Source: an uncultured bacterium
GTDB lineage: Bacteria > Bacillota_I > Bacilli_A > RFN20 > CAG-826
Length of the DNA stretch: 64,000 nucleotides
NCBI GenBank assembly: GCA_949283025.1
Contig: CASDRB010000012.1
Location: 197,384 to 261,383, forward strand
Direction of reading: 5' to 3'
The notes below the pieces were generated by a model. The model was not told the origin of the DNA and searched no databases. It worked only from the letters and a program-made list of their open reading frames with translations. This document shows, one piece after another, positions 16,895-63,286 of the stretch. The position numbers and the translations under genes were made by a program. Position 1 is the stretch's first letter. Every line of letters starts with the position of its first letter.

Positions 16895-19231
16895 TTATTT
16901 ATCCTCCAATTTTTTAATGTAATAAATTCTTGATCCAAAATCTCCTAAGGCTCTTACATCGTCATTAAAACCAGTCCCCATCCATTGTTGTTTTAATTTT
17001 AATGCTCCATTATTTAAATCAGATCCATAGATGACATATGATTCTTTTTCACCATTCATGGTTTTTCTTTTGCCTATTTGTTGCACCAACCAACCACGTT
17101 CATTGACGCGAATTGGAAGGACCATATTTATCAATCCACCGAAAGTTGCAAGCGGATGAACTTGCCTTCGAACTTTTATTTCGTATTGCCATTCATCAAT
17201 CAATCCATCTAACTTAATTTGATCGATTGGGGGGTTGATTTTTTGCAATCCGTTATAATACCCTAATATAGCTTCTTTTTTATCTTTTGAAACAACCATC
17301 CATAAACAGTAATTATCATTTTTAATATCTTTAAATCGATAAAAATCACCATCGCATATCAAAGCGCGATGAGATTTGTAGAACTTGACTTGTTCAATGA
17401 CCATTTTTTCTTCATATGGTAATAATGTAGACAAGTCTAACTCGTATCCAAATGCCCCAAAGCAAGCGACATTAAATCTTGTTTCAAAAGGAGTGTTTCT
17501 CAATACTGAATGGCTCGGACAGGCACTTAAATGATTAGAAATAGTTTTTAATGGATATGCTAACGACAATCCATTTTGTATATTTAATCGTTCAAATGCA
17601 TCAGTATCATCGCTAGACCAAATCGAATCAAAATATGTTAAAACACCTAGGTCAAACCTATTTCCGCCTGAAGCACAACCTTCAAAATAAACATCTGGAT
17701 GACTATTAATAATGTTATCTAACACACGATATAAGCCAAGAATATAACGATGATAAAATTCTCCGATTTCAAAATTAGAAGTTGCAACATCACTGATATG
17801 GCGATTCATATCCCATTTAACATATTCAATATTAGCGTGGTTTAATATGTTATTAACATTTTCAATGATGTAGTCTTGGACTTCTTTTTTTGTCAAATCT
17901 AAAACCAGTTGATGCCTACCCAAACTTGGTTGATAGTCATCAGACTTAATAGCCCAGTCTGGGTGCAAACGATAAAGTTTTGAATCTTGATTAACCATTT
18001 CTGGTTCAAACCATAGTCCAAACTTCATTCCTTTTTTATTGACATATTTAGCAAGACCATCTAAACCAATTGGCAATTTCTTTTTGTTGACATCATAATC
18101 TCCAAGACCACGAAAATCATCTATACGATTAGAAAACCATCCATCATCTAAAACAAACATTTCAATGCCTAGTTTTTTTGCTGAATTAATAATTGCCTTT
18201 ATTTTAGATTGGGTAAACTTCATATAGGTCGCTTCCCAATTATTTATTAAAATTGATGGATATTGATTTTTGTGATTAATTTTTAAAACTCTTTGACGAA
18301 TAAAATCATGCATATTTTGACTCATCCCATTAATACCTTTATCCGAATAAGTCATTATGGCATAGGGCGTTTCAAAAGTTTCATTAGGTCGTAAATGATA
18401 TTCAAAACAAAATGGATTAATTCCTAACTGAATTCTTACTTTATCAAATGAAGAATGTTCAACTAGTTCTTGATGATTTCCAGAATAAATTAAATTGAAT
18501 CCATAAACGCTTCCATGCGAATTTGTGGCGGTGTTTTCTTTTAATAAAAAGAATGGATTGTGGCGATTAGAAGAATTTCCAGTTTTAGAATCATTAATAT
18601 AAATGCTATGATCCAATTTAATTTGATTTACTTGGCCTTCAAATCCCCAACCTCCATATAATGATTGCAAAACAAAATTTTGATTGTTCAGCTCTAATTG
18701 CATTGAAGCAGCTTTGAAAATTTTTATTAATTTCCCGCTGAGATTGCTTATTAAAATATTTCTAACGATAACATCATTTTCAAAGTCAACAATATATTTC
18801 AAATCGACTTTAATATTTTTTACATTGTCAACTAACGTGATTATTAATTCTTCCATTTCTCCATGGATATCAGCAAGTTGAGTCAATGGAGTTATTTGTT
18901 TATTAATAATATGCGATACATATTTCAAATCTAAAATATAATTGTTATCGACTTTAATTAAAATAGACGGCTCTTTATAATCACCTTTACCAACGCTAGA
19001 AATTTCTAAACCTTTTAAATCAAGACAATAACTGTAATCCTTTTGGTCATCATAAACCGTACATGTTCCCGCACTATAGGCATATTTATCTAAAAGAAAA
19101 TCATAATTATCATGGTCAAAAATATATTTGCCATAATACTGGCTCAAAAGATGTCCAAACGAGGAAACATTAAAAATATACGATGTATTTTTTGTGTCTA
19201 ATTTAAAAACATTATTTTGAAATTTAATCAT
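16895..19231 (-). CDS. agaA: Alpha-galactosidase, GH36 (melibiase/raffinose hydrolase)
   Basis: 778 aa. The GH36 hallmark 'MFVLDDGWF' and catalytic-region 'KWDMNR' are present. Confidence 0.8.
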   Translation of the reverse strand: MIKFQNNVFKLDTKNTSYIFNVSSFGHLLSQYYGKYIFDHDNYDFLLDKYAYSAGTCTVYDDQKDYSYCLDLKGLEISSVGKGDYKEPSILIKVDNNYILDLKYVSHIINKQITPLTQLADIHGEMEELIITLVDNVKNIKVDLKYIVDFENDVIVRNILISNLSGKLIKIFKAASMQLELNNQNFVLQSLYGGWGFEGQVNQIKLDHSIYINDSKTGNSSNRHNPFFLLKENTATNSHGSVYGFNLIYSGNHQELVEHSSFDKVRIQLGINPFCFEYHLRPNETFETPYAIMTYSDKGINGMSQNMHDFIRQRVLKINHKNQYPSILINNWEATYMKFTQSKIKAIINSAKKLGIEMFVLDDGWFSNRIDDFRGLGDYDVNKKKLPIGLDGLAKYVNKKGMKFGLWFEPEMVNQDSKLYRLHPDWAIKSDDYQPSLGRHQLVLDLTKKEVQDYIIENVNNILNHANIEYVKWDMNRHISDVATSNFEIGEFYHRYILGLYRVLDNIINSHPDVYFEGCASGGNRFDLGVLTYFDSIWSSDDTDAFERLNIQNGLSLAYPLKTISNHLSACPSHSVLRNTPFETRFNVACFGAFGYELDLSTLLPYEEKMVIEQVKFYKSHRALICDGDFYRFKDIKNDNYCLWMVVSKDKKEAILGYYNGLQKINPPIDQIKLDGLIDEWQYEIKVRRQVHPLATFGGLINMVLPIRVNERGWLVQQIGKRKTMNGEKESYVIYGSDLNNGALKLKQQWMGTGFNDDVRALGDFGSRIYYIKKLEDK

Positions 19232-27988: not shown

Positions 27989-28279
27989 CTATGTTTCTCC
28001 TTTTTATGACTAGTTTAATTATATGTTAGTTTTATACAAAGAAACACTAATTTTTCAACAATTTTATCAAAAATGTTTAATAATCTTTAATTAATTATAT
28101 CGATTATTGTTTTACACATTATATTTAACAAATAAAAAATCATGCACATATATATTAAATAAAATTAGAGATATAGCGTTTTTTTGAACTTTTTTATTAT
28201 TTAGTCTATATTTAAAATGAGTTCGATTGTAATTAAAAATATTATAAATATTTTATGTAAACGAAAATTTTTTTGTTAA

Positions 28280-28311
28280 TTGATACATAATTTTGTAAAA
28301 GATTGTATAAT
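28280..28311 (+). promoter_or_regulatory. Putative sigma-A-type promoter for the fibre-subunit operon
   Basis: TATAAT at 28306-28311, preceded by TTG (gattgTATAAT). TTGATA at 28280-28285 lies at a non-ideal 20-nt spacing. The site is in a 365-bp AT-rich gap, about 40 nt upstream of RBS AAGGAGA and ATG 28354. Confidence 0.3.
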
Positions 28312-28353
28312 GTAAAAGATTGCAAAACCTTTTATCAAGGAAGGAGAACTTAG

Positions 28354-29133
28354 ATGAAAAAATTAACAAAGCATGCAAGTAGAAGAAAATGGATTCTTGG
28401 TGGCGTACTAGCTTTTGCTGGCGTAACTCTATTAACTGTTGGTACTGCTACTTGGATTGTTGGACAAGATAGTTCTAGCAAAGATGAAGACATTCAAGTA
28501 TCAGTTGACTCAGTTGAAAATAGGTCAGTAGTGTTGACGACCAAATTATCAGATAGTGCGATTGAATTAAAAGAGACTAAGGAACCAGCAGAAGACGGTA
28601 TTCTAGGACTTGAAGGTGGAGCGACTCCAGATGCATTAAAAATTACATTTAGTGAAATTAAATTAACTTATGGTAACAATTATTTCAATTCGGATAGCGA
28701 TAGTTTAAAATTTGATTTTTCAATCAAATATCACGACGAAGAAGGTAGCGCTACAAATTCGCAAAATTTAGTTAAAGAAAGTAAAATTGGCACTAAGCGA
28801 GTTCAAGATAAAACAGCAGCTTCTATTAAAAATGAAAGCAATGATTCGTGGGAATATGTTGCTGCACCTGAACCATTGACTTTATCTGGCAGCGGAGGAA
28901 CTGGTGATACAGATCCTACTAGCGGTTTAAAAACTATCACATACACTAGTAAAACTGTAGAATTTAGATGGGGTAGCTTCTTTAATAATGAATCACCTTG
29001 CACATATTACAACAAATTGACTTTTGACAATGAATTAAAAGCGATGAATGATATTACTAATGAATTAGAAGCTATGCAAGTTTTAAGTAAAATTAGTTTA
29101 ACTATCTCTGTTTCAGTTGTTAAAGGAGCTTAA
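28354..29133 (+). CDS. Secreted protein with SipW-cognate (TasA/camelysin-type) N-terminal signal peptide. Paralog 1 of 5. Candidate fibre/matrix subunit.
   Basis: 259 aa. N-terminus 'KKWILGGVLAFAGVTLLTVGTATWIVGQDSS' has a basic n-region, a hydrophobic core and a G-T-A-T-W-x-x-G-x-D box, resembling B. subtilis TasA '...GGGTWAAFND'. Strong RBS. Clear paralogy to the next ORF ('DIQVSVDSVENRSVVLTT' versus 'NITVSVADVQDKSLIITE'). Confidence 0.5.
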   Translation: MKKLTKHASRRKWILGGVLAFAGVTLLTVGTATWIVGQDSSSKDEDIQVSVDSVENRSVVLTTKLSDSAIELKETKEPAEDGILGLEGGATPDALKITFSEIKLTYGNNYFNSDSDSLKFDFSIKYHDEEGSATNSQNLVKESKIGTKRVQDKTAASIKNESNDSWEYVAAPEPLTLSGSGGTGDTDPTSGLKTITYTSKTVEFRWGSFFNNESPCTYYNKLTFDNELKAMNDITNELEAMQVLSKISLTISVSVVKGA

Positions 29134-29135
29134 AA

Positions 29136-29873
29136 ATGAAAATTAAACACAATAAAATTTTAACCTATTCAATGTTAGGTTTAGCTGCTGTATCATTAGT
29201 AGGCGTCGCGTTTTCATCATGGTTAGTCCAAGAGACTCAAGGAGCAAAAGTTGAAAACATCACTGTGTCAGTCGCCGATGTTCAAGACAAAAGTTTAATC
29301 ATAACTGAAGCAAAAGTTGATGAATATAATAAGACTTTCCTTTTTGATGCTAAAGAAGATGATACAACTGGGCCTATTATTTATACAGGTGAGACTGGTG
29401 GGGAAGATTTGAATTTTGGAATTACTTTTAAAGTAGAAAAAGCCTTAAATGCAAATGGCACTGCCGCTGCAGATAATTTTGGTGGCGTCTATGTTAAATG
29501 GGAAGTCACTGACGATGATGCCGGACGAGCTTTAAAAAACGCTATAACTAATAATTACATTGTTTCACCTTTGTCCGATAGCAATGTTGCTCTTCCTTCA
29601 TTTACTAATATTGGAGCTGATAGCGGAACTACTGTTAGTGGAACTAATGTTCAGGTCACATATGATGCTGATACAGTAACTAAAACCACTCTTACTGTTT
29701 CAGTCACATTTAGTTTTGCTTGGGGGAGTAAAACTGGCAGTCAAAATCCAGGAGAGTATGCTACTACCGATGATCCCGCTACTACACAAACTGCATTACA
29801 AGTTTTAATTGATTTGCAAGCCGCTAATAATGCGAAGTTTAACATTGTCTTAACTCCATTTTTAAAAGCATAA
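29136..29873 (+). CDS. Secreted protein with SipW-cognate signal peptide. Paralog 2 of 5.
   Basis: 245 aa. 'LGLAAVSLVGVAFSSWLVQETQGA'. RBS AAAGGAG. Thr/Ser/Asp/Asn-rich beta-type composition. Followed by a terminator. Confidence 0.5.
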   Translation: MKIKHNKILTYSMLGLAAVSLVGVAFSSWLVQETQGAKVENITVSVADVQDKSLIITEAKVDEYNKTFLFDAKEDDTTGPIIYTGETGGEDLNFGITFKVEKALNANGTAAADNFGGVYVKWEVTDDDAGRALKNAITNNYIVSPLSDSNVALPSFTNIGADSGTTVSGTNVQVTYDADTVTKTTLTVSVTFSFAWGSKTGSQNPGEYATTDDPATTQTALQVLIDLQAANNAKFNIVLTPFLKA

Positions 29874-29894
29874 TAAATTTATCAATAAACTTTT

Positions 29895-29924
29895 AACGCC
29901 TTTTTAGGCGTTTCTTCTTTTTTA
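29895..29924 (+). terminator. Rho-independent (probably partial) terminator between the subunit genes and the signal-peptidase gene
   Basis: Stem aacgcct / aggcgtt with loop tttt, then tcttctttttt. Confidence 0.5.
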
Positions 29925-29947
29925 TATGCGCGCACGCATAATAACCT

Positions 29948-30994
29948 ATGAACAGTTTAGAAATTCTTTCATTAATTATCACTTTTATCTGTTTGATAAG
30001 TTTTTGCATCGTTTTTACATTTTTATTTCGTGCCTATTTTAAAAATACGATAAAAAATATCAATGAAGGAAAAGAAGATATTGAATTAATTGATCAAGCT
30101 GTCATCGATGAGCAAAAAAAACATTCTAAAAAACAAAAAGTTTTAAAAGTAACCGGTAAGGTCATCTCATATACCATATTAGGCGCACTTATTGCTTTTT
30201 TTGGAATGGCCATCATTTCTAGAATAGCAGGTAATACTTTATTTTTTGGAGATACTACTGTAGTAGTTATCGCTTCTGGTTCAATGTCGAAAAAAAATAG
30301 CGCTAATACATATTTGCAAACATACGATTTAAACAATCAAATCGACACATATGATATAATTGGCATTAGCAAATATAAAAATTCACAACAAGTAAAATTG
30401 TACGATGTTGTCGCTTTTAAAGCTGATAACGGGGTCACAATTGTTCATCGCATTATAGATATTCAATATGATGATGATGGTATCGCTTATTACACTACAC
30501 GCGGAGATTCTAATGCGATAAGCGATAATGGTAGTTTATATAATGGCTATTTGACGTATGAAAATCTGGTTGGATATTATAACGGGGTGCGAGTTCCAAT
30601 ATTAGGTTCGTTTGTTATTTTTTTACAATCAGGTTCAGGAATTATTACTATTCTTTCCATCATATATTGTTTCGTGATGTTTGATGTATATAAAAAGAAA
30701 CTAGATGATGCAATTATCAATCGTAGCAATATGCTTATAGAATTGATAGATTATGATCCATCAAACGGCGATATCATTAATGATTTTAAACAAGAGTTGT
30801 ACTATCAAGGAATCAAATATACTTTCAAAGACGGACAATTTATCGATAAGTCTGAAACAATCGACGAACGTTTCAAAGATGTTGATAAAGATGATATGGT
30901 ATTTGTTAATGAAAGCAAAAATGAAACGTCTATTAAAATAAAGAATACTAAAAACAATCACATAAGTGATTTAAATGATAAGCGTGATAAATGA
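29948..30994 (+). CDS. sipW: Sec11/SipW-type (S26B) signal peptidase I with an extra N-terminal TM and a C-terminal cytoplasmic extension of about 100 aa
   Basis: 348 aa. Ser box 'VVIASGSMSKK', His box 'TIVHRIIDI' and 'TTRGDSNAISD' match the Sec11/SipW family (SGSMEP ... VHRV ... TKGDNN..D). TM helices flank the catalytic domain. The extra tail is 'DVYKKKLDDAIINRSN...KRDK'. Ends with a TGA stop. Confidence 0.7.
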   Translation: MNSLEILSLIITFICLISFCIVFTFLFRAYFKNTIKNINEGKEDIELIDQAVIDEQKKHSKKQKVLKVTGKVISYTILGALIAFFGMAIISRIAGNTLFFGDTTVVVIASGSMSKKNSANTYLQTYDLNNQIDTYDIIGISKYKNSQQVKLYDVVAFKADNGVTIVHRIIDIQYDDDGIAYYTTRGDSNAISDNGSLYNGYLTYENLVGYYNGVRVPILGSFVIFLQSGSGIITILSIIYCFVMFDVYKKKLDDAIINRSNMLIELIDYDPSNGDIINDFKQELYYQGIKYTFKDGQFIDKSETIDERFKDVDKDDMVFVNESKNETSIKIKNTKNNHISDLNDKRDK

Positions 30995-41605: not shown

Positions 41606-43882
41606 TTAATCTATATTTGCATACAAAGTTTTTGATGTTTCACAAAGAAGATCGCTTGCCTCTAAATATCCACCAATCCAAACAAAAAGCCAAGTTCCCT
41701 TATATATGCTTGTCGTAACTATTGTATAGTCATAGTTTTTATAGTTGCTGGCGCTAATTGAAAGGAGCCCATCATACAAATATATATTTTCTACACATGC
41801 AGTGCCACTTCCTTTTTCGTATCTATATTTGTAATAAAATCCTTTGCGTATTATAACACTTAATGCACTACCATTCCCCATAGTTGCTAACAACTGATAA
41901 TTCCCACCGCTTGTTTCTGATTCGTACACATATTTTGTTGATCCGCCATTTCCAGAATTTCCTGCACTTAGGAACCTCATTTCAATTCCTTCACCTGGTT
42001 CGATAGTGACATCTATGTTTCCTAACATAATATACATTTGATTGCTAGCAAAAGTATAATTCGAACCTTCTTGCATTGAAAAGTAAGTTCTTTCGGCTCT
42101 TGATGATGATTCGATTTTTATTTGTTGACCAATTTCAATCATAAACTCTTTAGATATACTTTCTAAACCATTTTCTGTGGTTAATAATACTTCGTTGTTG
42201 CCACTGGAGTCATAAGACCAGACTCTATATCCAACAGTAGGATGTTCATAATTAAATTTATTATCGATAATAATTCTTAATATATATGATGATAAGTATC
42301 CATTGGCCCAACATTTTAATCCATTAGAATTTGAATAAATGGTTTCGCCTGCTTTTAATAAGTAATTTTGATATTCATTTAATGTTGAATTAAAAAACGG
42401 TCCCGATGCACTAATGTTCACATTTACATTCGTGGTTCCTTCATTGGATGAAACTCTTAAATTACTTTGTTTTATATTAGTTAGATCAATTTTAGCACTT
42501 CCATCTAAATTCTCAGTTGTGACATAGCCACCAAATGATCCAGAACTAGAAACTATTATCGTTCCATTATTAATTAATTTTGCATCACCTCTATCAATAG
42601 GATAAGATGTGATTCCATTAGTTGAATCTGTTTCATAAATAATAAATTTATTTAAAATGTTAGCTGTAGAACTATTTGAAATTGTCAAAGAAGATCCGCC
42701 CATAAATTTCACCTGATAATTGAAATTGAATTCAGTGTTGCCTTCTAATCTAATATCTAATTTGTATGAAATTGGTAAAAAATAATATGAAGTATTAATT
42801 TCTGCTAATTCTAGGTCAAAATACAAATATCCCATATTAACGAGTCCGTTTATAGCAATATAAGTTTTTGAATTATCGGCATTCGTATAATCAGGATTAA
42901 TTGGACAGTATTCAAAAGAAATACTCCCAGATTCAAGAAAAAATAAAGGTTTCGAACCACTTTCATTAACTTTTTGCTGGCTTGAAATGATACAGCCAGT
43001 AACATCAACTGGTCTTGACATAATAGATGTGGATAGGTATGCTCTACATTGAACATCAAATACACCTCCAGATTCTATTTGCAAATATGTTTGAGTGTTA
43101 TAAAAATCAAAAACATTTACAGGACAAACATTATTGTTAATCAATTCATTAATAGCACTTATGCCAGGCATATCGTAAATACCAATTGGTGTTCTTAGAT
43201 AACCAGTAGATGTAATTTTTAAATATCTATTTGAATCGAATTCGTTAGAATAACTAGGATTTTCTACATTATCGACATTTTTATTATTTATTTCTTTTAT
43301 ATATCCATAATTATATAGCGAACCATTTACAGTAATTGAAGAATTTTCATCTAGTGATACTTCAGCATAATAACTGCAAATTCCTTTTGTTCTAAATTGA
43401 CCGCCAATATACATATATCCATTTACAATCAAATTAGTATTTATTAATTTTAATTGACTTCTTCTATATGTGTTTACACCAGCCGAACTAGTATCAATAA
43501 ATAAATCTTTCAAAGAAGCGACGTCGGTATTATTCCAATTTTTGAGTTCATCATAAGGTAAATATAAACTTGTATTGTCTCCAACAATTAACGTCTTATT
43601 TTCTTCAGTAAGAAAACTTCCAGAAAGTAAATAAACATCAACATTTTGAGAAGATTGTGAAGCAGAGATTAAAGCGCTCTCCAAGTTTGCAAATCTTGCA
43701 TATGGAGAACTAGTGCCTTGATAATAATTTTCAACAATAGCTTTTGAATTTTTATCAATTATCGCAGGAGCAGTTTCTTCATTATTATTTTTAGAATCAT
43801 ATTGAACAATTAAAAAAGAAGATAAACTTATTGAAAATATGCCACCAAATAAAATTAAAGAAGATAGTACACTTTTTTTCAT
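41606..43882 (-). CDS. Large secreted/surface protein (758 aa). The N-terminus resembles a SipW-cognate signal. Paired with the small paralog upstream.
   Basis: 'MKKSVLSSLILFGGIFSISLSSFLIVQYDSKNNN'. Asn/Ser/Thr/Tyr-rich beta-type composition. Separated by 2 nt from the upstream 206-aa gene. Confidence 0.4.
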   Translation of the reverse strand: MKKSVLSSLILFGGIFSISLSSFLIVQYDSKNNNEETAPAIIDKNSKAIVENYYQGTSSPYARFANLESALISASQSSQNVDVYLLSGSFLTEENKTLIVGDNTSLYLPYDELKNWNNTDVASLKDLFIDTSSAGVNTYRRSQLKLINTNLIVNGYMYIGGQFRTKGICSYYAEVSLDENSSITVNGSLYNYGYIKEINNKNVDNVENPSYSNEFDSNRYLKITSTGYLRTPIGIYDMPGISAINELINNNVCPVNVFDFYNTQTYLQIESGGVFDVQCRAYLSTSIMSRPVDVTGCIISSQQKVNESGSKPLFFLESGSISFEYCPINPDYTNADNSKTYIAINGLVNMGYLYFDLELAEINTSYYFLPISYKLDIRLEGNTEFNFNYQVKFMGGSSLTISNSSTANILNKFIIYETDSTNGITSYPIDRGDAKLINNGTIIVSSSGSFGGYVTTENLDGSAKIDLTNIKQSNLRVSSNEGTTNVNVNISASGPFFNSTLNEYQNYLLKAGETIYSNSNGLKCWANGYLSSYILRIIIDNKFNYEHPTVGYRVWSYDSSGNNEVLLTTENGLESISKEFMIEIGQQIKIESSSRAERTYFSMQEGSNYTFASNQMYIMLGNIDVTIEPGEGIEMRFLSAGNSGNGGSTKYVYESETSGGNYQLLATMGNGSALSVIIRKGFYYKYRYEKGSGTACVENIYLYDGLLSISASNYKNYDYTIVTTSIYKGTWLFVWIGGYLEASDLLCETSKTLYANID

Positions 43883-43884
43883 AA

Positions 43885-44505
43885 TTAACCTAAATTTACA
43901 GCTGTTATTTTCAAATCAAAATGTGAAATTTCACTATTATTGGCAGCAGAAGAAAAACTATTGTAAATTTGTGAAAAAGAAGTATGGTCAAGAATAGTAA
44001 AAGTGAAACCTACTTCAATATTTGTAACATTTTCCGTAGATAATTCAATTGCTATTTCATCACTAAACAAATAATAATTTGAGACAGTCAAATTATGCAC
44101 ATTATTTTTATTTATTTCTAAAGTATGTGAAAAGTATTCATTAATAAATTTTCCATTTATTTCAGCTAGATTAAAAGTTAATTTGATAGAATTATTCAAA
44201 ACATAATTTGTGCTTTCAGCCACCTGTCTATTAATATCAATATAATAAATTAATCTACCAGTATCAGTAATTTGTCCATCTTCAATAAAACCATCTTGGC
44301 AAATTGTAAAAGTTTTAAATCCTAGAGGATGACTATCGTTTTTATTAAGTGTTATAAATGAATGAACTCCAGCAAAATTAAAACTATTATCCTTAATTTC
44401 TCCAGAAAAACTATCTCCAGTAACTGAGAATGAGGAAAATCCTAATGAAAAAAGGCAAATGGGCATAATAACACTAAATATAGATAATAATGATTTTCTT
44501 TTCAT
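43885..44505 (-). CDS. Secreted protein with SipW-cognate signal peptide. Paralog 3 of 5.
   Basis: 206 aa. 'LLSIFSVIMPICLFSLGFSSFSVTGDSF'. Confidence 0.45.
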   Translation of the reverse strand: MKRKSLLSIFSVIMPICLFSLGFSSFSVTGDSFSGEIKDNSFNFAGVHSFITLNKNDSHPLGFKTFTICQDGFIEDGQITDTGRLIYYIDINRQVAESTNYVLNNSIKLTFNLAEINGKFINEYFSHTLEINKNNVHNLTVSNYYLFSDEIAIELSTENVTNIEVGFTFTILDHTSFSQIYNSFSSAANNSEISHFDLKITAVNLG

Positions 44506-57057: not shown

Positions 57058-57088
57058 ATCAAAATAAAAGGTGTAGATTTGCTACACC
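57058..57088 (-). terminator. Rho-independent terminator ending fibre module B
   Basis: Stem ggtgtag / ctacacc with loop atttg. The plus-strand A-run 57058-57069 gives a T-run on the minus strand. The hairpin overlaps the sipW-like stop codon. Confidence 0.5.
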
Positions 57089-58737
57089 TAGTTATCTTCT
57101 TGTTCTTGAGTTTCACCACTTAAAATTTTTTCTTTAAGCTCTTGATAATGATCTTTGATTGGAATTTCTTTTTTATTAAGACCATCTTTGCTCATACAAT
57201 CCTTTATTAATTCCAACGCTCTTTTTAATGATAAAGTGGAACGGACTTTTAAGACGACAGGAATATCGGCATAAACACCTTTATTTCCAACATCTTTAAC
57301 AGGATAAGTTGTGTTTTCATAATCTTTATAATCTAATGCTAGATATAATTTTAAATTTTTGCCAGAAATAGCAATTTTACAATATGCTTTCTTATGCAAT
57401 CTAAATGTATCACCGGTAGCAGAAATACGAGATTTAACACCATAAGATAAAATTTCTTGTTTCATCGCATTATATCGGCTTTGCAATTCTTCATCTAGTT
57501 CTAAGAAACGTTGAGAAAATGAAATGCGGTCATAAGCTTTCGTTTTTCTTGGAGCGCCTGTTGAAGTAAACAAATGAGAACGCAAAGAATCATCTTCATC
57601 TTGCTCTTCTTTAATTTCTTCTACATTTGTTTCCTCATTATTTTGATTAGTGTCTACTGCTTGAGATTCATCCATTAAATTGTCTTCAACAGCATTATCT
57701 TGCGCTGTAGAAACTACTTCGTTATCTTTTTCTTGTTCGATTTGTTCAACTTGTTCAGTATTTTCTTTTCTTGTTGCCCAATCTAAATAATGAATTTCGT
57801 TTTCCTTAATAATCGCATCATCAATTTCATTTTCAAAACGAGTGTATAAATATTGTTTTCTCAAATTTATTTTTTTGCCTAAATAAATGTCTAAAATATC
57901 ATAAAAACCAATCAACACTAATGCTAAAGCAATGGTTATCATACCTATTCCAGATTGAATATAATAAATTACTATTCCTAATCCAAAATTTTGAAAACCG
58001 TTATATTTTCCAATTATATCTTGATATGTTAATCCTATTTCATAACCAGCACTCGATGTATTAGCATCGCCTCGAGCCGTAAAATATTTAACTCCTTCGT
58101 GTTCATAAATATCAATAACTCTATGAACAACAATATTATTATTGTCATCTTTAAAAGCAATAATATCATATAAATCAATATCGCCTTCTTCAACTTTATT
58201 AATACCAATTAAAGAATAGGTAGAAATTTGATTTGTTAAATTGTTTTCAATTAAATATTTATTATCTGGGTCCACTTTTTCCATTGAACCTGATTTAATA
58301 ATTAAACACGAGGTATCATTAATCATAAATAAGTCGCCTGACGCTCTAACATAAATAGCAAATCCCATAAATGCGACAAAGCAAATATAAACAACAATTA
58401 ACACGATATTTGCGACCATTTTAATGATATTTGCAGATTTTCTACCTTTTTCAATGTGCTGAGTAAAAGGAACGACATTTTCTTGTTTATATTCAACGGG
58501 TTGTTGATGATCATTTACTAAAGCTTCGGTTTTTAAAAAGTACTTTTTGTTTTCTAAAATAACTTCTCTTGCTATATAAGAATCTTCAACTTTATGATCG
58601 ATGCACTTTGCATAATATCGATAATAAAGATAAAACAAAACACCAAAACCTATCACAAGCAAAACAATGACACTGATTGAGACCGCCAATGAAATGGCTT
58701 CTAAATTGGATACACTATTTAAAATGATATTTGTCAT
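57088..58737 (-). CDS. sipW: Sec11/SipW-type (S26B) signal peptidase I, second copy, with a 2-TM N-terminal extension and a C-terminal cytoplasmic extension of about 230 aa including an acidic low-complexity tract
   Basis: 549 aa. Ser box 'LIIKSGSMEKV', His box 'IVVHRVIDI' and 'TARGDANTSS'. Three TM segments. Tail 'QVEQIEQEKDNEVV...EEQDEDDS' followed by a folded basic domain. Confidence 0.65.
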   Translation of the reverse strand: MTNIILNSVSNLEAISLAVSISVIVLLVIGFGVLFYLYYRYYAKCIDHKVEDSYIAREVILENKKYFLKTEALVNDHQQPVEYKQENVVPFTQHIEKGRKSANIIKMVANIVLIVVYICFVAFMGFAIYVRASGDLFMINDTSCLIIKSGSMEKVDPDNKYLIENNLTNQISTYSLIGINKVEEGDIDLYDIIAFKDDNNNIVVHRVIDIYEHEGVKYFTARGDANTSSAGYEIGLTYQDIIGKYNGFQNFGLGIVIYYIQSGIGMITIALALVLIGFYDILDIYLGKKINLRKQYLYTRFENEIDDAIIKENEIHYLDWATRKENTEQVEQIEQEKDNEVVSTAQDNAVEDNLMDESQAVDTNQNNEETNVEEIKEEQDEDDSLRSHLFTSTGAPRKTKAYDRISFSQRFLELDEELQSRYNAMKQEILSYGVKSRISATGDTFRLHKKAYCKIAISGKNLKLYLALDYKDYENTTYPVKDVGNKGVYADIPVVLKVRSTLSLKRALELIKDCMSKDGLNKKEIPIKDHYQELKEKILSGETQEQEDN

Positions 58738-58758: not shown

Positions 58759-61260
58759 CTATTTTGGAACAACTTGCAAGAAGTAATTTTTACGCACGAT
58801 AAATGGATTTTCCACATAATCTTGATATGCAACATACTCACCTGTAACAACATCTTGTAGACGTTTACCTTTTTGATCATAGTATTTAAGGAGTTGCTCA
58901 AAAGTTACTATATTGCCGCTAACTCCAATTTCAGATGGAATAGTCAATCCTGCTTGCCTGACATAATTATCGGTTCCTAAAATTGGTGTTTCTAAATAAT
59001 AATAGTCTTCGCAACGATATGAATACCTGCTAGTATCTAAATAATTTGAGCCCACTTCTAATATTTGTCCACCAAAATCATCTGGATCATAAATGTTAAC
59101 AAAGATGTTATGCAGACGATATGTCCAAATATCGACTGAATTTGGTATGTTATTTATATCATAATTTATGATTGTATATATGTTATATGTTCCAGTAACT
59201 TTAAATCTGATTAACTTAACATTATTATAAACAGCGTTCCATTCAGCAGAACCTTTACCCCACTCTGCAAGAGATTTTAATTCACTTGGGGCTCCATTAT
59301 TGTATGTTCTAACTTTGATACGTCTTAAATCTTCTGTATATAAAGTATTTCCGTCCACCGAAGTATATTTTCCATCCATTACATCTTGCAAAGATACCAA
59401 ATATTTTTTTGAAGAATAAACTTCTTCTATTTCATTACCATTGATATCTTTGTACTTATACACCGGTGCGTCATATTTCAAATTAGGATCCAAAGAGTCA
59501 GTAAATTCAGAATCATTAGGATTAGTATTATCTTGTCCATATAACTTTTGATCATATATTGTATTTTGGTCTAAAGCCACTTGAATGGCAAAATAATAAG
59601 CTGGTATCAAATATTGCCTTCTTGGAGTTCCATCATCATTATAAAAAGTATAATCAATATATTTTAATGTTGGATCATTATCATTACTAGGAACATTGAC
59701 TGTTCTATTTCTTAATTCATAACTTCTTAAAAGGGTACCGCTAGTGCCTTGTCTTGTAAAATTTAATTTATAAGATTGAGGATTATTATAATCAAGAGCT
59801 AAAGATGAACCACCGATAACCCTAGGCTCATAAACTCTTTCAACAACGATATATGTGCCACGTATGTTTCCTTCATAAGCGAATGTATTTGATAAATCTG
59901 TTTTATAAGATTCATAAATATAAATTCCATCATTTCTTAACATGCTATCAATATAGTCAATTTGATCGCCAGTAAAATTGCCATTCTCATAATAATTATC
60001 GTAATATTGGTTGCCTGTATCATAAGATTCTTTTACAAAAAAGTAAATATTATATCTTCCTATCTGATCATTTAAAGGAAAATCTGAGAAAATATTTCTT
60101 GAATGTTCATTGCCCGCCCAAGAACTACCATAACAGTTGATATCATTTCTTATAATATACTTGCCAACGACAGAATCACTATTTAAATTTGATTCATTAA
60201 TTAAAAGATTTGTATAACGATACGCCTCATATTTTATACCATAATAGTATGTTTTTAATTGGGGTAGCCAATCAACCCATTCCCATACATCATAGCTGCT
60301 TTCTTTTACTCCTGCAAAAGAGGCATTTTTTTGTAATGTGTCACTAAACTCTTTGTCGTAAGAAAAATTTAAAGAACCGCTATTGGTAAAAATTTCTACA
60401 CATTCTTTTAAATTATCTTTATTTCCAGCATCATATGAATAATTATCTTTTCCAGTCGAATACATAGGATAAAAAACTATTGTTTTTCTTCCATCAATCG
60501 TAATAGCGCAATCATTATAAATGCTCAATAACGTATTAAAACGAGCAAGTTCGGTAGTAGTAGAATACGATCCTGCTACATAATGATAACCATTAGCATC
60601 ACTTGGCGTTTTCCCACTTCTTTTATATGTATTGCCATCATAAGATAGGCCCCAGCCCATAAAATTTAAATAATAAAATTTATTATCATTAACTTCAGAA
60701 CTTCTATCTAGTAACCCGCACTTCAAATCACTATTATTTTTAGAATTTACAGGTAAAACATTTGGATTACTTAAATCATCGAGCATGCCGTTAGTCACTT
60801 CTGCAACATTACGATAAATTCTTGGTCCAATATAACAATTATTCACAATATAATTACTTTGTGTGGATTCATCTGGCCAATTTGTTTCATCATAAATCCA
60901 TTTCCCATAATATCCTTGTGCTTCTTGTTGGCCTTCTGGGATGTAAACCCATAGTGAATCATTGCTTTTATATTCGTTTGTTCCACCTTCAACTGGAGTT
61001 AATTTACTAGTTATGTCAACATTTTGAGCTAAAAACACAACATCATAATATTCAACATCGTTAACAACAACATCGCTTTCTTCACCAAAAGTTTGGTTGG
61101 CTCTTATTGCATCTCCAATTGGTGATGCTTGTTCAGAAATATTAAAATTATTAGCAAAATAAAAGGTGGAATATGCTGTTGTTACAACCATGCCCAATGC
61201 ACCGACAACTAAAAACGATGCAATGATAGGTTTTTTGAAAAAACTTTTAATATTCATCAT
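58759..61260 (-). CDS. Large secreted/surface protein (833 aa) with a SipW-cognate-like signal peptide
   Basis: 'KKPIIASFLVVGALGMVVTTAYSTFYFANNFN' (compare TasA 'GGGTWAAFND'). Tyr/Asn/Gly-rich. Its ATG overlaps the stop of the upstream small paralog (TAATG). Confidence 0.4.
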   Translation of the reverse strand: MMNIKSFFKKPIIASFLVVGALGMVVTTAYSTFYFANNFNISEQASPIGDAIRANQTFGEESDVVVNDVEYYDVVFLAQNVDITSKLTPVEGGTNEYKSNDSLWVYIPEGQQEAQGYYGKWIYDETNWPDESTQSNYIVNNCYIGPRIYRNVAEVTNGMLDDLSNPNVLPVNSKNNSDLKCGLLDRSSEVNDNKFYYLNFMGWGLSYDGNTYKRSGKTPSDANGYHYVAGSYSTTTELARFNTLLSIYNDCAITIDGRKTIVFYPMYSTGKDNYSYDAGNKDNLKECVEIFTNSGSLNFSYDKEFSDTLQKNASFAGVKESSYDVWEWVDWLPQLKTYYYGIKYEAYRYTNLLINESNLNSDSVVGKYIIRNDINCYGSSWAGNEHSRNIFSDFPLNDQIGRYNIYFFVKESYDTGNQYYDNYYENGNFTGDQIDYIDSMLRNDGIYIYESYKTDLSNTFAYEGNIRGTYIVVERVYEPRVIGGSSLALDYNNPQSYKLNFTRQGTSGTLLRSYELRNRTVNVPSNDNDPTLKYIDYTFYNDDGTPRRQYLIPAYYFAIQVALDQNTIYDQKLYGQDNTNPNDSEFTDSLDPNLKYDAPVYKYKDINGNEIEEVYSSKKYLVSLQDVMDGKYTSVDGNTLYTEDLRRIKVRTYNNGAPSELKSLAEWGKGSAEWNAVYNNVKLIRFKVTGTYNIYTIINYDINNIPNSVDIWTYRLHNIFVNIYDPDDFGGQILEVGSNYLDTSRYSYRCEDYYYLETPILGTDNYVRQAGLTIPSEIGVSGNIVTFEQLLKYYDQKGKRLQDVVTGEYVAYQDYVENPFIVRKNYFLQVVPK

Positions 61261-61865
61261 TATCCCACCCTTTCATAAGTTATGTTTAAAGTTAAGGTTA
61301 CTTTTTCATCTTTATACAAATTTAATTGTTCAAGCATCGTAACAAACTTAGCGGATGAATCTGGTTTCATACCGCTTTTGTAACGAAATAAAGGTGTTAA
61401 TGTATAAGTTTTTGTTCCTGCAGTTAAATCAACATTTAAAAATCCTTCTTGATTTTCAACAAATTCAGCATATGTATTGAAAGCAATATTATTTCCAACA
61501 TCAAATCCTAATTGATATTTGAAATCATAACCGCTCAAATTTGCATAATCATCACCTAAAGAACCTTCGGCAATAGGATTAAAATCAAACACGAGATTTG
61601 GAACAAAATTAACACCAACATCTTCATTGCCTATTTCATTGTCTCCGCCTTGTTCAAAAACAATGCGATAGTTTTCATATCCTAATGTAGTTGGACCAAT
61701 TAGGTTTATTTCTCCTAATTCGCATTTAGTAGCAATGGTTATTCCAAATGCTATTTGATCGTTTTGGGTTTGGTTAGTAAAAATCCATGCTCCAAATCCA
61801 GCAGTTACAACTGTAGCAAAAGAAATAAGCGGAACAAAAAGTTGTGCTAAAAAACGTTTAAACAT
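61260..61865 (-). CDS. Secreted protein with SipW-cognate signal peptide. Paralog 4 of 5.
   Basis: 201 aa. 'LFVPLISFATVVTAGFGAWIFTNQTQND'. The shared block 'FEQGGDNEIGNEDVGVNF' corresponds to 'YTGETGGEDLNFGITF' in paralog 2. Confidence 0.45.
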   Translation of the reverse strand: MFKRFLAQLFVPLISFATVVTAGFGAWIFTNQTQNDQIAFGITIATKCELGEINLIGPTTLGYENYRIVFEQGGDNEIGNEDVGVNFVPNLVFDFNPIAEGSLGDDYANLSGYDFKYQLGFDVGNNIAFNTYAEFVENQEGFLNVDLTAGTKTYTLTPLFRYKSGMKPDSSAKFVTMLEQLNLYKDEKVTLTLNITYERVG

Positions 61866-61901: not shown

Positions 61902-62525
61902 TTATTTGTCTGTCCAAGTAGCTGTAACAGTCACTGTTAAAGTAAATTTTTTGCTATTTAATGCAGTAACCATGGCATCATATTCTGTTTTGTCAGCTGG
62001 TTTATCAACATATGTCCAAGTTAATGGCACACTAGACCATTTATGAATGGTCCCAGAACTCATTGTGCCAGCATTATAATTATCAACAACGACATCACTA
62101 GCACTTTCTTTTGCAAGTCCATTAGTTAAATCAAAATAAGTTGTGACATTATCAGTTGAACTAATAGCAACTGTATAAGAAAGTGTCAATTTGCTATTTG
62201 TAAGTAATTCTTGTAAACCACCAACTGTTTCATATGAAACTTTAATATCATAAGAAGTTACGGTGGATTTTATTCCTTCACTTGCAATACTAGCATTAGC
62301 AATACCGCCTTGATCTAAAGTTAAATTAACTGCGGTTAAATCGTTATCAGTATCAACTTCCTTTATTTCTACTTTCAACTTATCAACTACCGGGGTAATA
62401 CTGAAAGTTCCACTAAGCGTATCAGTAACTGAGGTATCACTAAATACCCAAGCAGAAAAACCTGAACCGACCACGACAGCTGCTCCTAAAACAGGTAGCA
62501 TGAAATTATAAAATTTTTTATGCAT
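61902..62525 (-). CDS. Secreted protein with SipW-cognate signal peptide. Paralog 5 of 5 and first gene of module B.
   Basis: 207 aa. 'MLPVLGAAVVVGSGFSAWVFSDTSVTD'. Strong RBS AAGGAGGG. Confidence 0.45.
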   Translation of the reverse strand: MHKKFYNFMLPVLGAAVVVGSGFSAWVFSDTSVTDTLSGTFSITPVVDKLKVEIKEVDTDNDLTAVNLTLDQGGIANASIASEGIKSTVTSYDIKVSYETVGGLQELLTNSKLTLSYTVAISSTDNVTTYFDLTNGLAKESASDVVVDNYNAGTMSSGTIHKWSSVPLTWTYVDKPADKTEYDAMVTALNSKKFTLTVTVTATWTDK

Positions 62526-62645
62526 AACAAATCCCTCCTTCTAAAGAAAAATGCACAAAACCTTATCGGTGTATATATATTAAGATAAAGATACAAAAAA
62601 ATACAAAAACCGCATTTTTGTCGTGTATTTATATGATTTTTGTGG

Positions 62646-62674
62646 ATTATAGTTAAGGAAAAATATACATTTAA
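62646..62674 (-). promoter_or_regulatory. Putative sigma-A promoter of fibre module B (minus strand)
   Basis: On the minus strand: TTAAAT (plus 62669-62674), a 17-nt spacer, then TATAAT (plus 62646-62651), about 120 nt upstream of ATG 62525. Confidence 0.3.
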
Positions 62675-62714
62675 TCTATTATTTTGTATTTTTTCCACAA
62701 AAAATTAAAAATAA

Positions 62715-62727
62715 CCCCCCCCCCCCC
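62715..62727. repeat. Homopolymeric C13 (G13 on the minus strand) tract in the upstream region of fibre module B
   Basis: A 13-nt poly-C run in a genome of about 28% GC. It lies 41 nt upstream of the putative -35 and about 190 nt upstream of the first start codon of the minus-strand operon. Confidence 0.9.
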
Positions 62728-62850
62728 GAAATTTTTAAAAGTTTTCATACTTTTTTTAAAAAAAGTTCAATTATTTCTATTTTTTACAACGAAATTCGAT
62801 TATTTTATAGACATTTTTGACCAAAATGTAATTTTATATTATACAAAAAA

Positions 62851-62878
62851 ACACAGCATAAACGCTGTGCAAAAAAAC
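62851..62878. terminator. Hairpin terminator (bidirectional) downstream of the Zn-ribbon membrane protein gene
   Basis: Stem cacagc / gctgtg with loop ataaac, flanked by A-runs on both sides on the plus strand. Confidence 0.35.
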
Positions 62879-62896
62879 AACAAAAAACGCTTTTTA

Positions 62897-63286
62897 TTAG
62901 AAAAATGCAATAGCATTAGTAATACTAGGTAAAATCAAAATTCCATAAATTACTGACCAGACAATGCTTAAAACAAAGCCAATTAACGCACCAATACCAG
63001 CGGCTTTTGCTTTGGCTGGTTCACTTTTCAACCATACACAAAATAAAATTAATCCTGCTAGTGGAATAAAAAATCCTAATATCCCCCATCCGATAGCACT
63101 AGAATTGCTAACAGAAGATGTTGAGTTATTATAATTAGGTGTTGCATTTTGTTGAGGCTGTGGTTGATTAACAGTTGGTTGAGGTTCTACTTCTGGTTGA
63201 GAAGAATCAACAAGCGTAGCACCACAAAATGTACAAAATTTAGCACTATCATCTACTTCACGACCGCATTTTGGACAAATTTTCAT
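62897..63286 (-). CDS. Membrane protein with N-terminal zinc-ribbon, Pro/Gln-rich linker and C-terminal 2-TM domain
   Basis: 129 aa. 'CPKCGREVDDSAKFCTFCG', a Pro/Gln/Asn-rich low-complexity linker, then two hydrophobic helices. Confidence 0.45.
   Translation of the reverse strand: MKICPKCGREVDDSAKFCTFCGATLVDSSQPEVEPQPTVNQPQPQQNATPNYNNSTSSVSNSSAIGWGILGFFIPLAGLILFCVWLKSEPAKAKAAGIGALIGFVLSIVWSVIYGILILPSITNAIAFF

Follow-up and report, generated by a model that had tools for sequence, protein, structure and literature searches.

The stretch of DNA that we analysed (the window) is 64 kb long and has a GC content of 30.9%. Its minus strand carries an operon of four tightly packed genes, whose products are 207, 201, 833 and 549 aa long. 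The promoter-proximal gene (61902–62525) encodes the 207-aa secreted protein with an N-terminal signal (..VVGSGFSAWVF..), and the second gene (61260–61865) encodes its 201-aa paralog with a signal of the same type (..GSGFSAW..). They are followed by the gene for the 833-aa protein (58759–61260), which starts with a membrane or signal segment and has no recognised domain, and by the gene for the 549-aa membrane protein (57088–58737), which combines a SipW/archaeal-type signal peptidase I domain at residues ~106–284 with a long C-terminal extension. An intrinsic terminator lies at the operon end (57089–57069). On the same strand upstream, a gene at 62897–63286 codes for a 129-aa membrane protein with the Pfam domain Zn_Ribbon_1. 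It ends in an intrinsic terminator of its own (62870–62851; 8-bp stem with 4 GC pairs, T-run), which is kept in all strains and forms the upstream boundary within the intergenic region 62526–62896. Because the two terminators bound this region, the operon promoter has to lie within 62526–62850. An earlier note on this DNA had called it the only plausible promoter region, and we agree, as it is the sole intergenic region between the two terminators. The first gene starts with ATG at 62525, preceded at a distance of 8 nt by a ribosome-binding site AGGAGG (62539–62534) that is conserved in all strains.

Pfam domains were found in none of the four operon proteins. The 549-aa protein, described in the earlier note as a SipW-like peptidase, matches the NCBIfam SipW model with E=2.6e-11 and contains the catalytic-type motifs SGSME and VHRV, but the match is weak, with 43 bits against a cut-off of 190; the model TIGR02228 gave 38 bits (cut-off 51.85). 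Similarly, the two small proteins are paralogs as claimed, but only weakly related, with 26% identity over ~100 aa (BLASTP, E=6e-6). An AlphaFold (AF2) model of the 207-aa protein, based on an alignment of 28 sequences, predicts a beta-sandwich with a pLDDT of 65.6, in which residues 1–43 are disordered. Foldseek with this model returned only generic beta-sandwich matches (best E=0.085), and a profile search of the 207-aa family against PDB sequences was empty. No likeness of the small subunit to TasA, camelysin (Peptidase_M73) or TapA was found by sequence or fold, and no adhesin or fibre domain was recognisable in the operon proteins. With a generic beta-sandwich model and no TasA match, the label "fibre" that had been given to this module is not supported. 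The sequence features support the view that the products are secreted proteins processed by the SipW-like peptidase, and the signal peptides together with the weak SipW match would fit a location at the cell surface.

A second SipW-type module is located at 28354–30994 on the plus strand, where genes for 259- and 245-aa proteins with similar N-terminal signals precede a gene for a 348-aa SipW-like peptidase. The latter reaches 53.7 bits with TIGR02228, above the cut-off. The region upstream of this module (27989–28353) contains no G/C tract. The locus at 41606–44505 showed no homology to the four-gene operon by BLASTP.

Within the promoter region of the operon, the plus strand reads AATAA-C13-GAAAT. 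The wider surroundings are AAAAATAA-CCCCCCCCCCCCC-GAAATTTTT, where the C run occupies positions 62715–62727. On the minus strand, which is the sense strand of the operon, the run is G13. C runs of 1, 2, 3, 4 and 5 nt occur 6743, 1524, 184, 35 and 3 times in the window, after which no length is represented up to the one run of 13; among G runs the maximum is 6 nt (17229–17234). The number of G or C runs of at least 13 nt expected in 64 kb from base composition is ~4e-6. The G13 run is genuinely present in the sequence and far exceeds what chance would produce, and the earlier note was right to call a 13-nt poly-C extreme for this DNA. The tract also exceeds the length of ~7–8 G or C from which slippage is frequent in simple sequence repeat (SSR) contingency loci, making it a candidate hypermutable element.

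To compare strains of the same species, we located the locus in public assemblies (ENA, Logan) via the neighbouring Zn-ribbon and TM2 proteins, which are identical in many of them. The intergenic region is spanned by 13 other assemblies, an upper bound on independent observations as some may derive from the same samples, and in all 13 the tract occupies the same position between flanks that are nearly identical. Its length is G13 in the window and in L002, G10 in L004, G11 in L010 and L046, G14 in L003, L005, L006, L007 and L051, G15 in L001 and G16 in L045, while L043 and L044 carry the interrupted forms G-T-G9 and G-T-G10; exact homopolymer lengths from short-read assemblies may be one base off. 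The observed lengths cluster at 10–12 and 13–16. Since the G-T-G interruption is common to two samples, the assemblies capture heritable differences and not noise. Thus, the 14 assemblies display the combination of conserved flanks and inter-strain length polymorphism that characterizes contingency loci. The earlier note had proposed to look for such polymorphism in assemblies and had named invariance across strains as evidence against a switch; what we found were lengths of 10 to 16 and two interrupted forms.

Pairs of strains with identical flanks over 360 nt differ by 1–3 G. L007 (G14) and L010 (G11) form such a pair, and the flanks of L001 (G15) are identical to those of L003, L005 and L006 (all G14). 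L002 (G13) shows one flank mismatch to L004 (G10) and one to L046 (G11). As a control we used 19 other homopolymers in the surrounding 3 kb (A/T runs of 6–7 nt and G5): 14 were invariant and two T runs differed by 1 nt, while for the remaining three no counterpart in another strain could be assigned. Tract length changes far faster than point substitutions accumulate in the flanks.

Several contigs break off at the tract or close to it. The first letters of L053 lie within the tract, L051 stops 12 nt beyond it, and L008 and L009 end before it. We considered these ends as a sign of within-sample heterogeneity and rejected this interpretation, because five Logan contigs of another species (L057–L061) also stop exactly at their poly-G, so that such breaks are systematic in Logan assemblies. 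L052 (ERZ16268265) diverges completely over its last ~95 nt (window ~62750–62841), right after the terminator of the Zn-ribbon gene, which suggests an insertion or another arrangement in place of the tract-bearing promoter region. Scanning metagenome contigs with the 24-nt upstream flank yielded only a chance match in a marine coding sequence (L042).

Diversity within the locus peaks in the gene that directly follows the tract. In the strains compared here (L001–L007, L010 and L043–L046), its 207-aa product either shows 74–86% identity (81–86% against the window) or is replaced by a different allele that aligns only over the 46-residue N-terminus. In some strains the replaced allele comes with an extra 198-aa paralog inserted before the gene for the 201-aa protein. 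The TM2, Zn-ribbon and 201-aa products, on the other hand, are 94–100% identical to those of the window, and for the genes flanking the hotspot the values are 97–100%. The homologous first gene in a clade of 60% GC likewise occurs as many alleles with 70–95% identity among them. Such diversity fits a surface target under diversifying selection. Where stochastic expression and sequence diversification coincide, they usually mark a surface structure under pressure from phages or the host.

We next turned to the promoter and leader region itself (62526–62850). Apart from the tract length and a diverged block at ~62640–62705, the strains have nearly the same sequence here. The 3′ end of the tract (62715) is 190 nt away from the ATG, and 40 nt separate it from TTAAAT (62674–62669)-N17-TATAAT (62651–62646), the promoter candidate of the earlier note. 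Both distances were correct on re-measurement. The candidate itself (62646–62674) is not conserved within the species, as four strains (L007, L010, L043 and L044; haplotype B) have ATATAT...AAATAT instead. An alternative candidate, TTAACT-N17-TATAAA(T) (62628–62656), overlaps it and starts 58 nt downstream of the tract. Its −10 element lacks the T at position 6 and is kept in all strains, and its −35 element is the consensus TTGACA in haplotype B. A third candidate brackets the tract (62708–62738) and consists of TTAAAA (62738–62733), ATTTC, G13, T and TATTTT (62713–62708), with a spacer of 19 nt at G13 and 17 nt at G11. Its score of 8/12 is reached by 54% of shuffled flanks. Since promoter-like matches are as frequent in this AT-rich DNA as in shuffles, none of the candidates can be trusted from sequence alone.

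The two haplotypes of the promoter region differ by a heavily substituted block of ~65 nt (62640–62705), which begins 10 nt downstream of the tract. In haplotype B it removes the TTAAAT/TATAAT pair and creates the consensus TTGACA −35 of the overlapping promoter. A 10-nt inverted repeat, TTTTTGTGGA / TCCACAAAAA, at 62695–62704 and 62637–62646 flanks the promoter candidate of the earlier note. Its GTGGA/TCCAC cores are retained in both haplotypes, and the sequence between them diverges. We rejected an invertible promoter formed by TTTTTGTGGA and TCCACAAAAA, as haplotype B is collinear with haplotype A and not its inverse, and the segment measures only ~48 bp. A promoter at the perfect TATAAT just after the terminator (62843–62838) was also rejected, since this element is TATAAC in haplotype B and has no −35.

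The 189 nt between tract and ATG (62526–62714) contain seven copies of the hexamer ACAAAA/TTTTGT, where 0.4 are expected. No other 189-nt stretch of the 64 kb exceeds this count. Several of the copies are arranged as inverted pairs and may be binding sites of a regulator; together with AT-rich palindromes, this hexamer-rich leader makes up all the candidate regulator sites. A GACAAAA motif shared between the promoter regions of different species is only weakly enriched (0.93 vs 0.33 per kb). We rejected a riboswitch or structured leader, as the leader matched no Rfam family (best E=0.97) and folded no better than shuffled sequences (z = −0.8).

To find homologous operons in other species, genome contigs were scanned with the alignment of the 207-aa family. 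This yielded 31 loci with a total of 318 kb, all from MAGs labelled as uncultured gut Bacilli, Mollicutes or Firmicutes. Identities are 25–46% in the best aligned segment, with one match restricted to the signal peptide that reaches 61%. Most loci share the operon plan of the window, with small paralogs, a protein of ~750–950 aa and then one of 330–540 aa. G or C runs of at least 7 nt occur 12 times in the 318 kb, and 10 of them lie within 320 nt upstream of the matched gene, a region that makes up 3% of the sequence (binomial P=3e-14). Nine of these 10 are G on the sense strand. Relative to the start of the matched gene they are G8 at −132 (L011, L013), G7 at −131 (L015) and −125 (L012), G10 at −45 (L016), −198 (L017), −68 (L027) and −65 (L037), and G9 at −302 (L023), the exception being C7 at −47 (L019). 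An eleventh run, G9 in L014, is located just upstream of the first gene of the operon, so that 10 of 11 tract-bearing species share the sense-strand orientation. The tract is present in 7 of the 8 closest homologs and mostly absent from more distant ones. Its length varies here as well: we found G9, G10, G14 and, at a contig end, at least G11 in the species of L016, and G7 vs G8 between near-identical flanks in the 60%-GC clade. Poly-G has stayed associated with this operon family even in distant species. Such retention of a G run before one operon family, despite the divergence and the differences in base composition, speaks for selection and therefore for a function.

In four to five of these relatives, the tract is located inside the spacer of a good sigma-70-type promoter. 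The layouts are TTGACG-C-G10-N7-TATAAT in L027 (11/12, spacer 18), TTGACT-AC-G10-N7-TATTAT in L037 (10/12, spacer 19), TTGAAA-AAATAC-G10-TGT-TATT(A/C)T in L062 and L016 (10/12 and 9/12, spacer 19) and TTGACG-AC-G9-T-TATAGT in L014 (10/12). Only 1–5% of shuffled flanks reach such scores, and one or two fewer G would bring the spacers to the optimal 17 nt. This placement suggests a geometry other than the changes in UP-element or activator-site spacing that the earlier note had put forward. The bracketing candidate of the window has the same layout as L017 and L016/L062. The species of the window and L017 have in common TTAAAA, a short A-rich linker, Gn and T/C-TAWWTT, as well as a leader of ~190 nt.

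Our preferred interpretation, with a probability of about 0.62, is that the tract is a hypermutable contingency tract which, by slipped-strand mispairing, tunes transcription of the four-gene operon for secreted proteins and a SipW-like peptidase. During replication, mispairing would add or remove G's. Since the operon can be transcribed only from the stretch that contains the tract, each change in length would alter the promoter geometry and set transcription to another heritable and reversible level, either on/off or graded. This could happen in two ways. The tract may set the −35/−10 spacer of the weak bracketing promoter TTAAAA-ATTTC-Gn-T-TATTTT, with an optimum at ~G10–11; the length clusters of 10–12 and 13–16 would then correspond to "on" and "off". 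Alternatively, it may determine how far conserved upstream DNA is from a promoter 40–58 nt downstream, and on which face of the helix. We infer that tract length affects transcription, that switching is reversible and that the products form surface structures on which the host or phages exert pressure. The phase-variation switch of the earlier note is borne out insofar as a slippage-prone homopolymer of strain-variable length occupies the promoter region, and the sense-strand poly-G upstream of homologous operons across species lends it further support; on/off switching itself is still a candidate property.

A counterpoint is that the tract of the window is not inside a convincing promoter, while better-looking −35/−10 candidates, one of them not conserved, are found 40–58 nt downstream. 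It could be hypermutable but neutral, a relic of an ancestral promoter-spacer tract that now lies ~75–105 nt upstream of the active start and drifts in length with no change in expression. A spacer tract is indeed still seen in L016, L027 and L037, the bracketing promoter of the window scores at chance level, and interruptions like those in G-T-G9 and G-T-G10 are the usual first step of decay or stabilisation. However, long G runs are quickly lost without selection. All 14 assemblies keep at least 9 uninterrupted G's in a genome of 31% GC, L017 as another species with the same long-leader layout keeps G10 at −198, and the orientation is the same in all tract-bearing species but L019. We therefore regard neutral drift as rather unlikely. 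About equally doubtful is a reading that retains selection and changes the mechanism. The poly-G would be an ancestral, selectively maintained part of an undescribed SipW-dependent operon family across a clade of gut Bacilli of 30%–60% GC. In the species of the window and in L017 it would have moved out of the core promoter and act from ~−75 to −105 by a mechanism other than classical spacer variation, such as a non-B DNA structure or the helical phasing of a hypothetical activator.

The tract might also work as a structural or RNA element, either through a G-quadruplex or R-loop of the G-rich non-template strand or, if transcription began at a more distant upstream promoter, as poly-G within a long 5′ leader, comparable to leader tracts with an effect on mRNA level or processing. 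In a pure spacing role the G's would not have to lie on the sense strand, as they do in every tract-bearing species except one, and the TATAAT just after the terminator would offer a start for such a leader. A 5′-UTR-dependent SSR mechanism is described for Haemophilus influenzae (PMC12721329). Yet common ancestry of homologous promoters accounts more simply for the shared orientation, and the loss of that TATAAT in haplotype B, its missing −35 and the lack of an Rfam match or significant fold in the leader all speak against this explanation. In L027, L037 and L016, moreover, the tract is clearly upstream of the −10 and thus not transcribed from that promoter. We consider a structural or RNA role improbable. 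Poly-G artefacts occur in two-colour Illumina data, and together with the contig ends near the tract this could indicate a sequencing error or a mis-joined contig. The earlier note had kept an assembly artefact in view, but in 13 further ENA and Logan assemblies from different pipelines the tract sits within the contig, and the unique flanking sequences on either side are the same. The heritable G-T-G interruption and the homologous tracts in MAGs of other species from unrelated projects point the same way, leaving hardly any room for an artefact. The preferred interpretation thus remains a contingency tract acting on transcription.

The layout can be compared with several known systems, the nearest being the poly-G promoters of Treponema pallidum tpr/tp0126 and, for a distal geometry, nadA. 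The poly-A of Mycoplasma hyorhinis vlp is a promoter-spacer homopolymer of surface-protein genes that switches by slipped-strand mispairing. The poly-G of Neisseria meningitidis porA and the poly-C of opc are summarised as promoter-spacer switches in PMC7864442. Like these, our locus has a promoter homopolymer, placed in the spacer in its relatives as judged by sequence, whereas the bracketing promoter of the window is at chance level. The promoters of the outer-membrane-protein genes tprE/G/J, tprL and tp0126 of Treponema pallidum contain a poly-G of ~7–12 nt, whose length varies within and between isolates and determines transcription; in tp0126 it separates −35 from −10, and a 17-nt spacer is optimal (PMC7864442). 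A guanosine homopolymer in the promoter region is common to both cases, and the tp0126 layout recurs in L027, L037 and L016. In contrast to the spirochaete tracts, the tract of the window is longer (10–16), ~190 nt from the start codon and outside a convincing −35/−10 pair, and its host is an AT-rich uncultured member of the gut Bacilli. In N. meningitidis nadA, repeats located upstream of the core promoter alter how far distal elements or operators are from the promoter, resulting in graded adhesin expression (PMC2791445). This simple-sequence tract upstream of a core promoter is the geometry that the earlier note had proposed, and in the window the tract precedes candidate −35 elements by 40 nt and 58 nt, themselves at chance frequency. 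Unlike the TAAA tetranucleotide of nadA with its repressor NadR and IHF, the tract of the window is a homopolymer, and regulator sites are present only as candidates.

With Bacillus subtilis tapA-sipW-tasA, in which donor-strand exchange assembles the TasA fibres (PMC9674648), the operon has in common a peptidase of SipW type, a weakly matching candidate in our case, and secreted proteins with matching N-terminal signals in one transcription unit. It differs in that there is no TasA, camelysin or TapA match by sequence or fold, and its peptidase has ~260 extra C-terminal residues. In addition, tasA is regulated by SinR/SlrR, with no repeat tract involved. A literature search found neither a repeat-controlled SipW-associated operon nor SSR phase variation for this group of uncultured gut Bacilli.

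Very probably, the locus is a slipped-strand switch of a well-known kind in a group without an earlier description. Phase variation by repeat tracts is textbook knowledge for Neisseria, Campylobacter, Treponema and mycoplasmas, and to our knowledge hardly documented in uncultured Bacilli with reduced genomes, which are frequent in gut metagenomes. The locus provides a concrete example, with a strain-variable tract that is conserved before the same operon family in distant species and a hypervariable first gene. Switching of a surface structure by the tract, if real, would account for differences in phage susceptibility or host interaction between strains of organisms that are so far beyond culture, and existing metagenomic reads could give the on/off state directly. 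Should the tract be an ancestral element acting from outside the core promoter, populations of an abundant, uncultured gut lineage would switch a hypervariable surface structure used as a phage receptor or as an organelle of host interaction. The aspects most worth following are the conservation across species and a possible action at a distance. On the practical side, assemblies of these genomes break or are mis-sized at the tract, and reported lengths need care.

The homologous loci showed several further features. The operon family (L011–L041) spans genomes from ~25% to 61% GC, an unusually wide range for the same gene order and upstream tract. Some distant species without poly-G have other repeats upstream of the operon, namely T15 in L033, T13 in L031 and (ATT)9 in L032, which are statistically less compelling in AT-rich DNA. 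In L011 (5303–5707, minus strand) the homologous operon adjoins a tmRNA gene on the opposite strand, and L012, L013 and L015 look similar by eye. Finally, the 60%-GC clade has a conserved palindrome, TCTAC-N5–7-GTAG, between the G tract and the downstream −35, with stem positions that differ between species as judged by eye.
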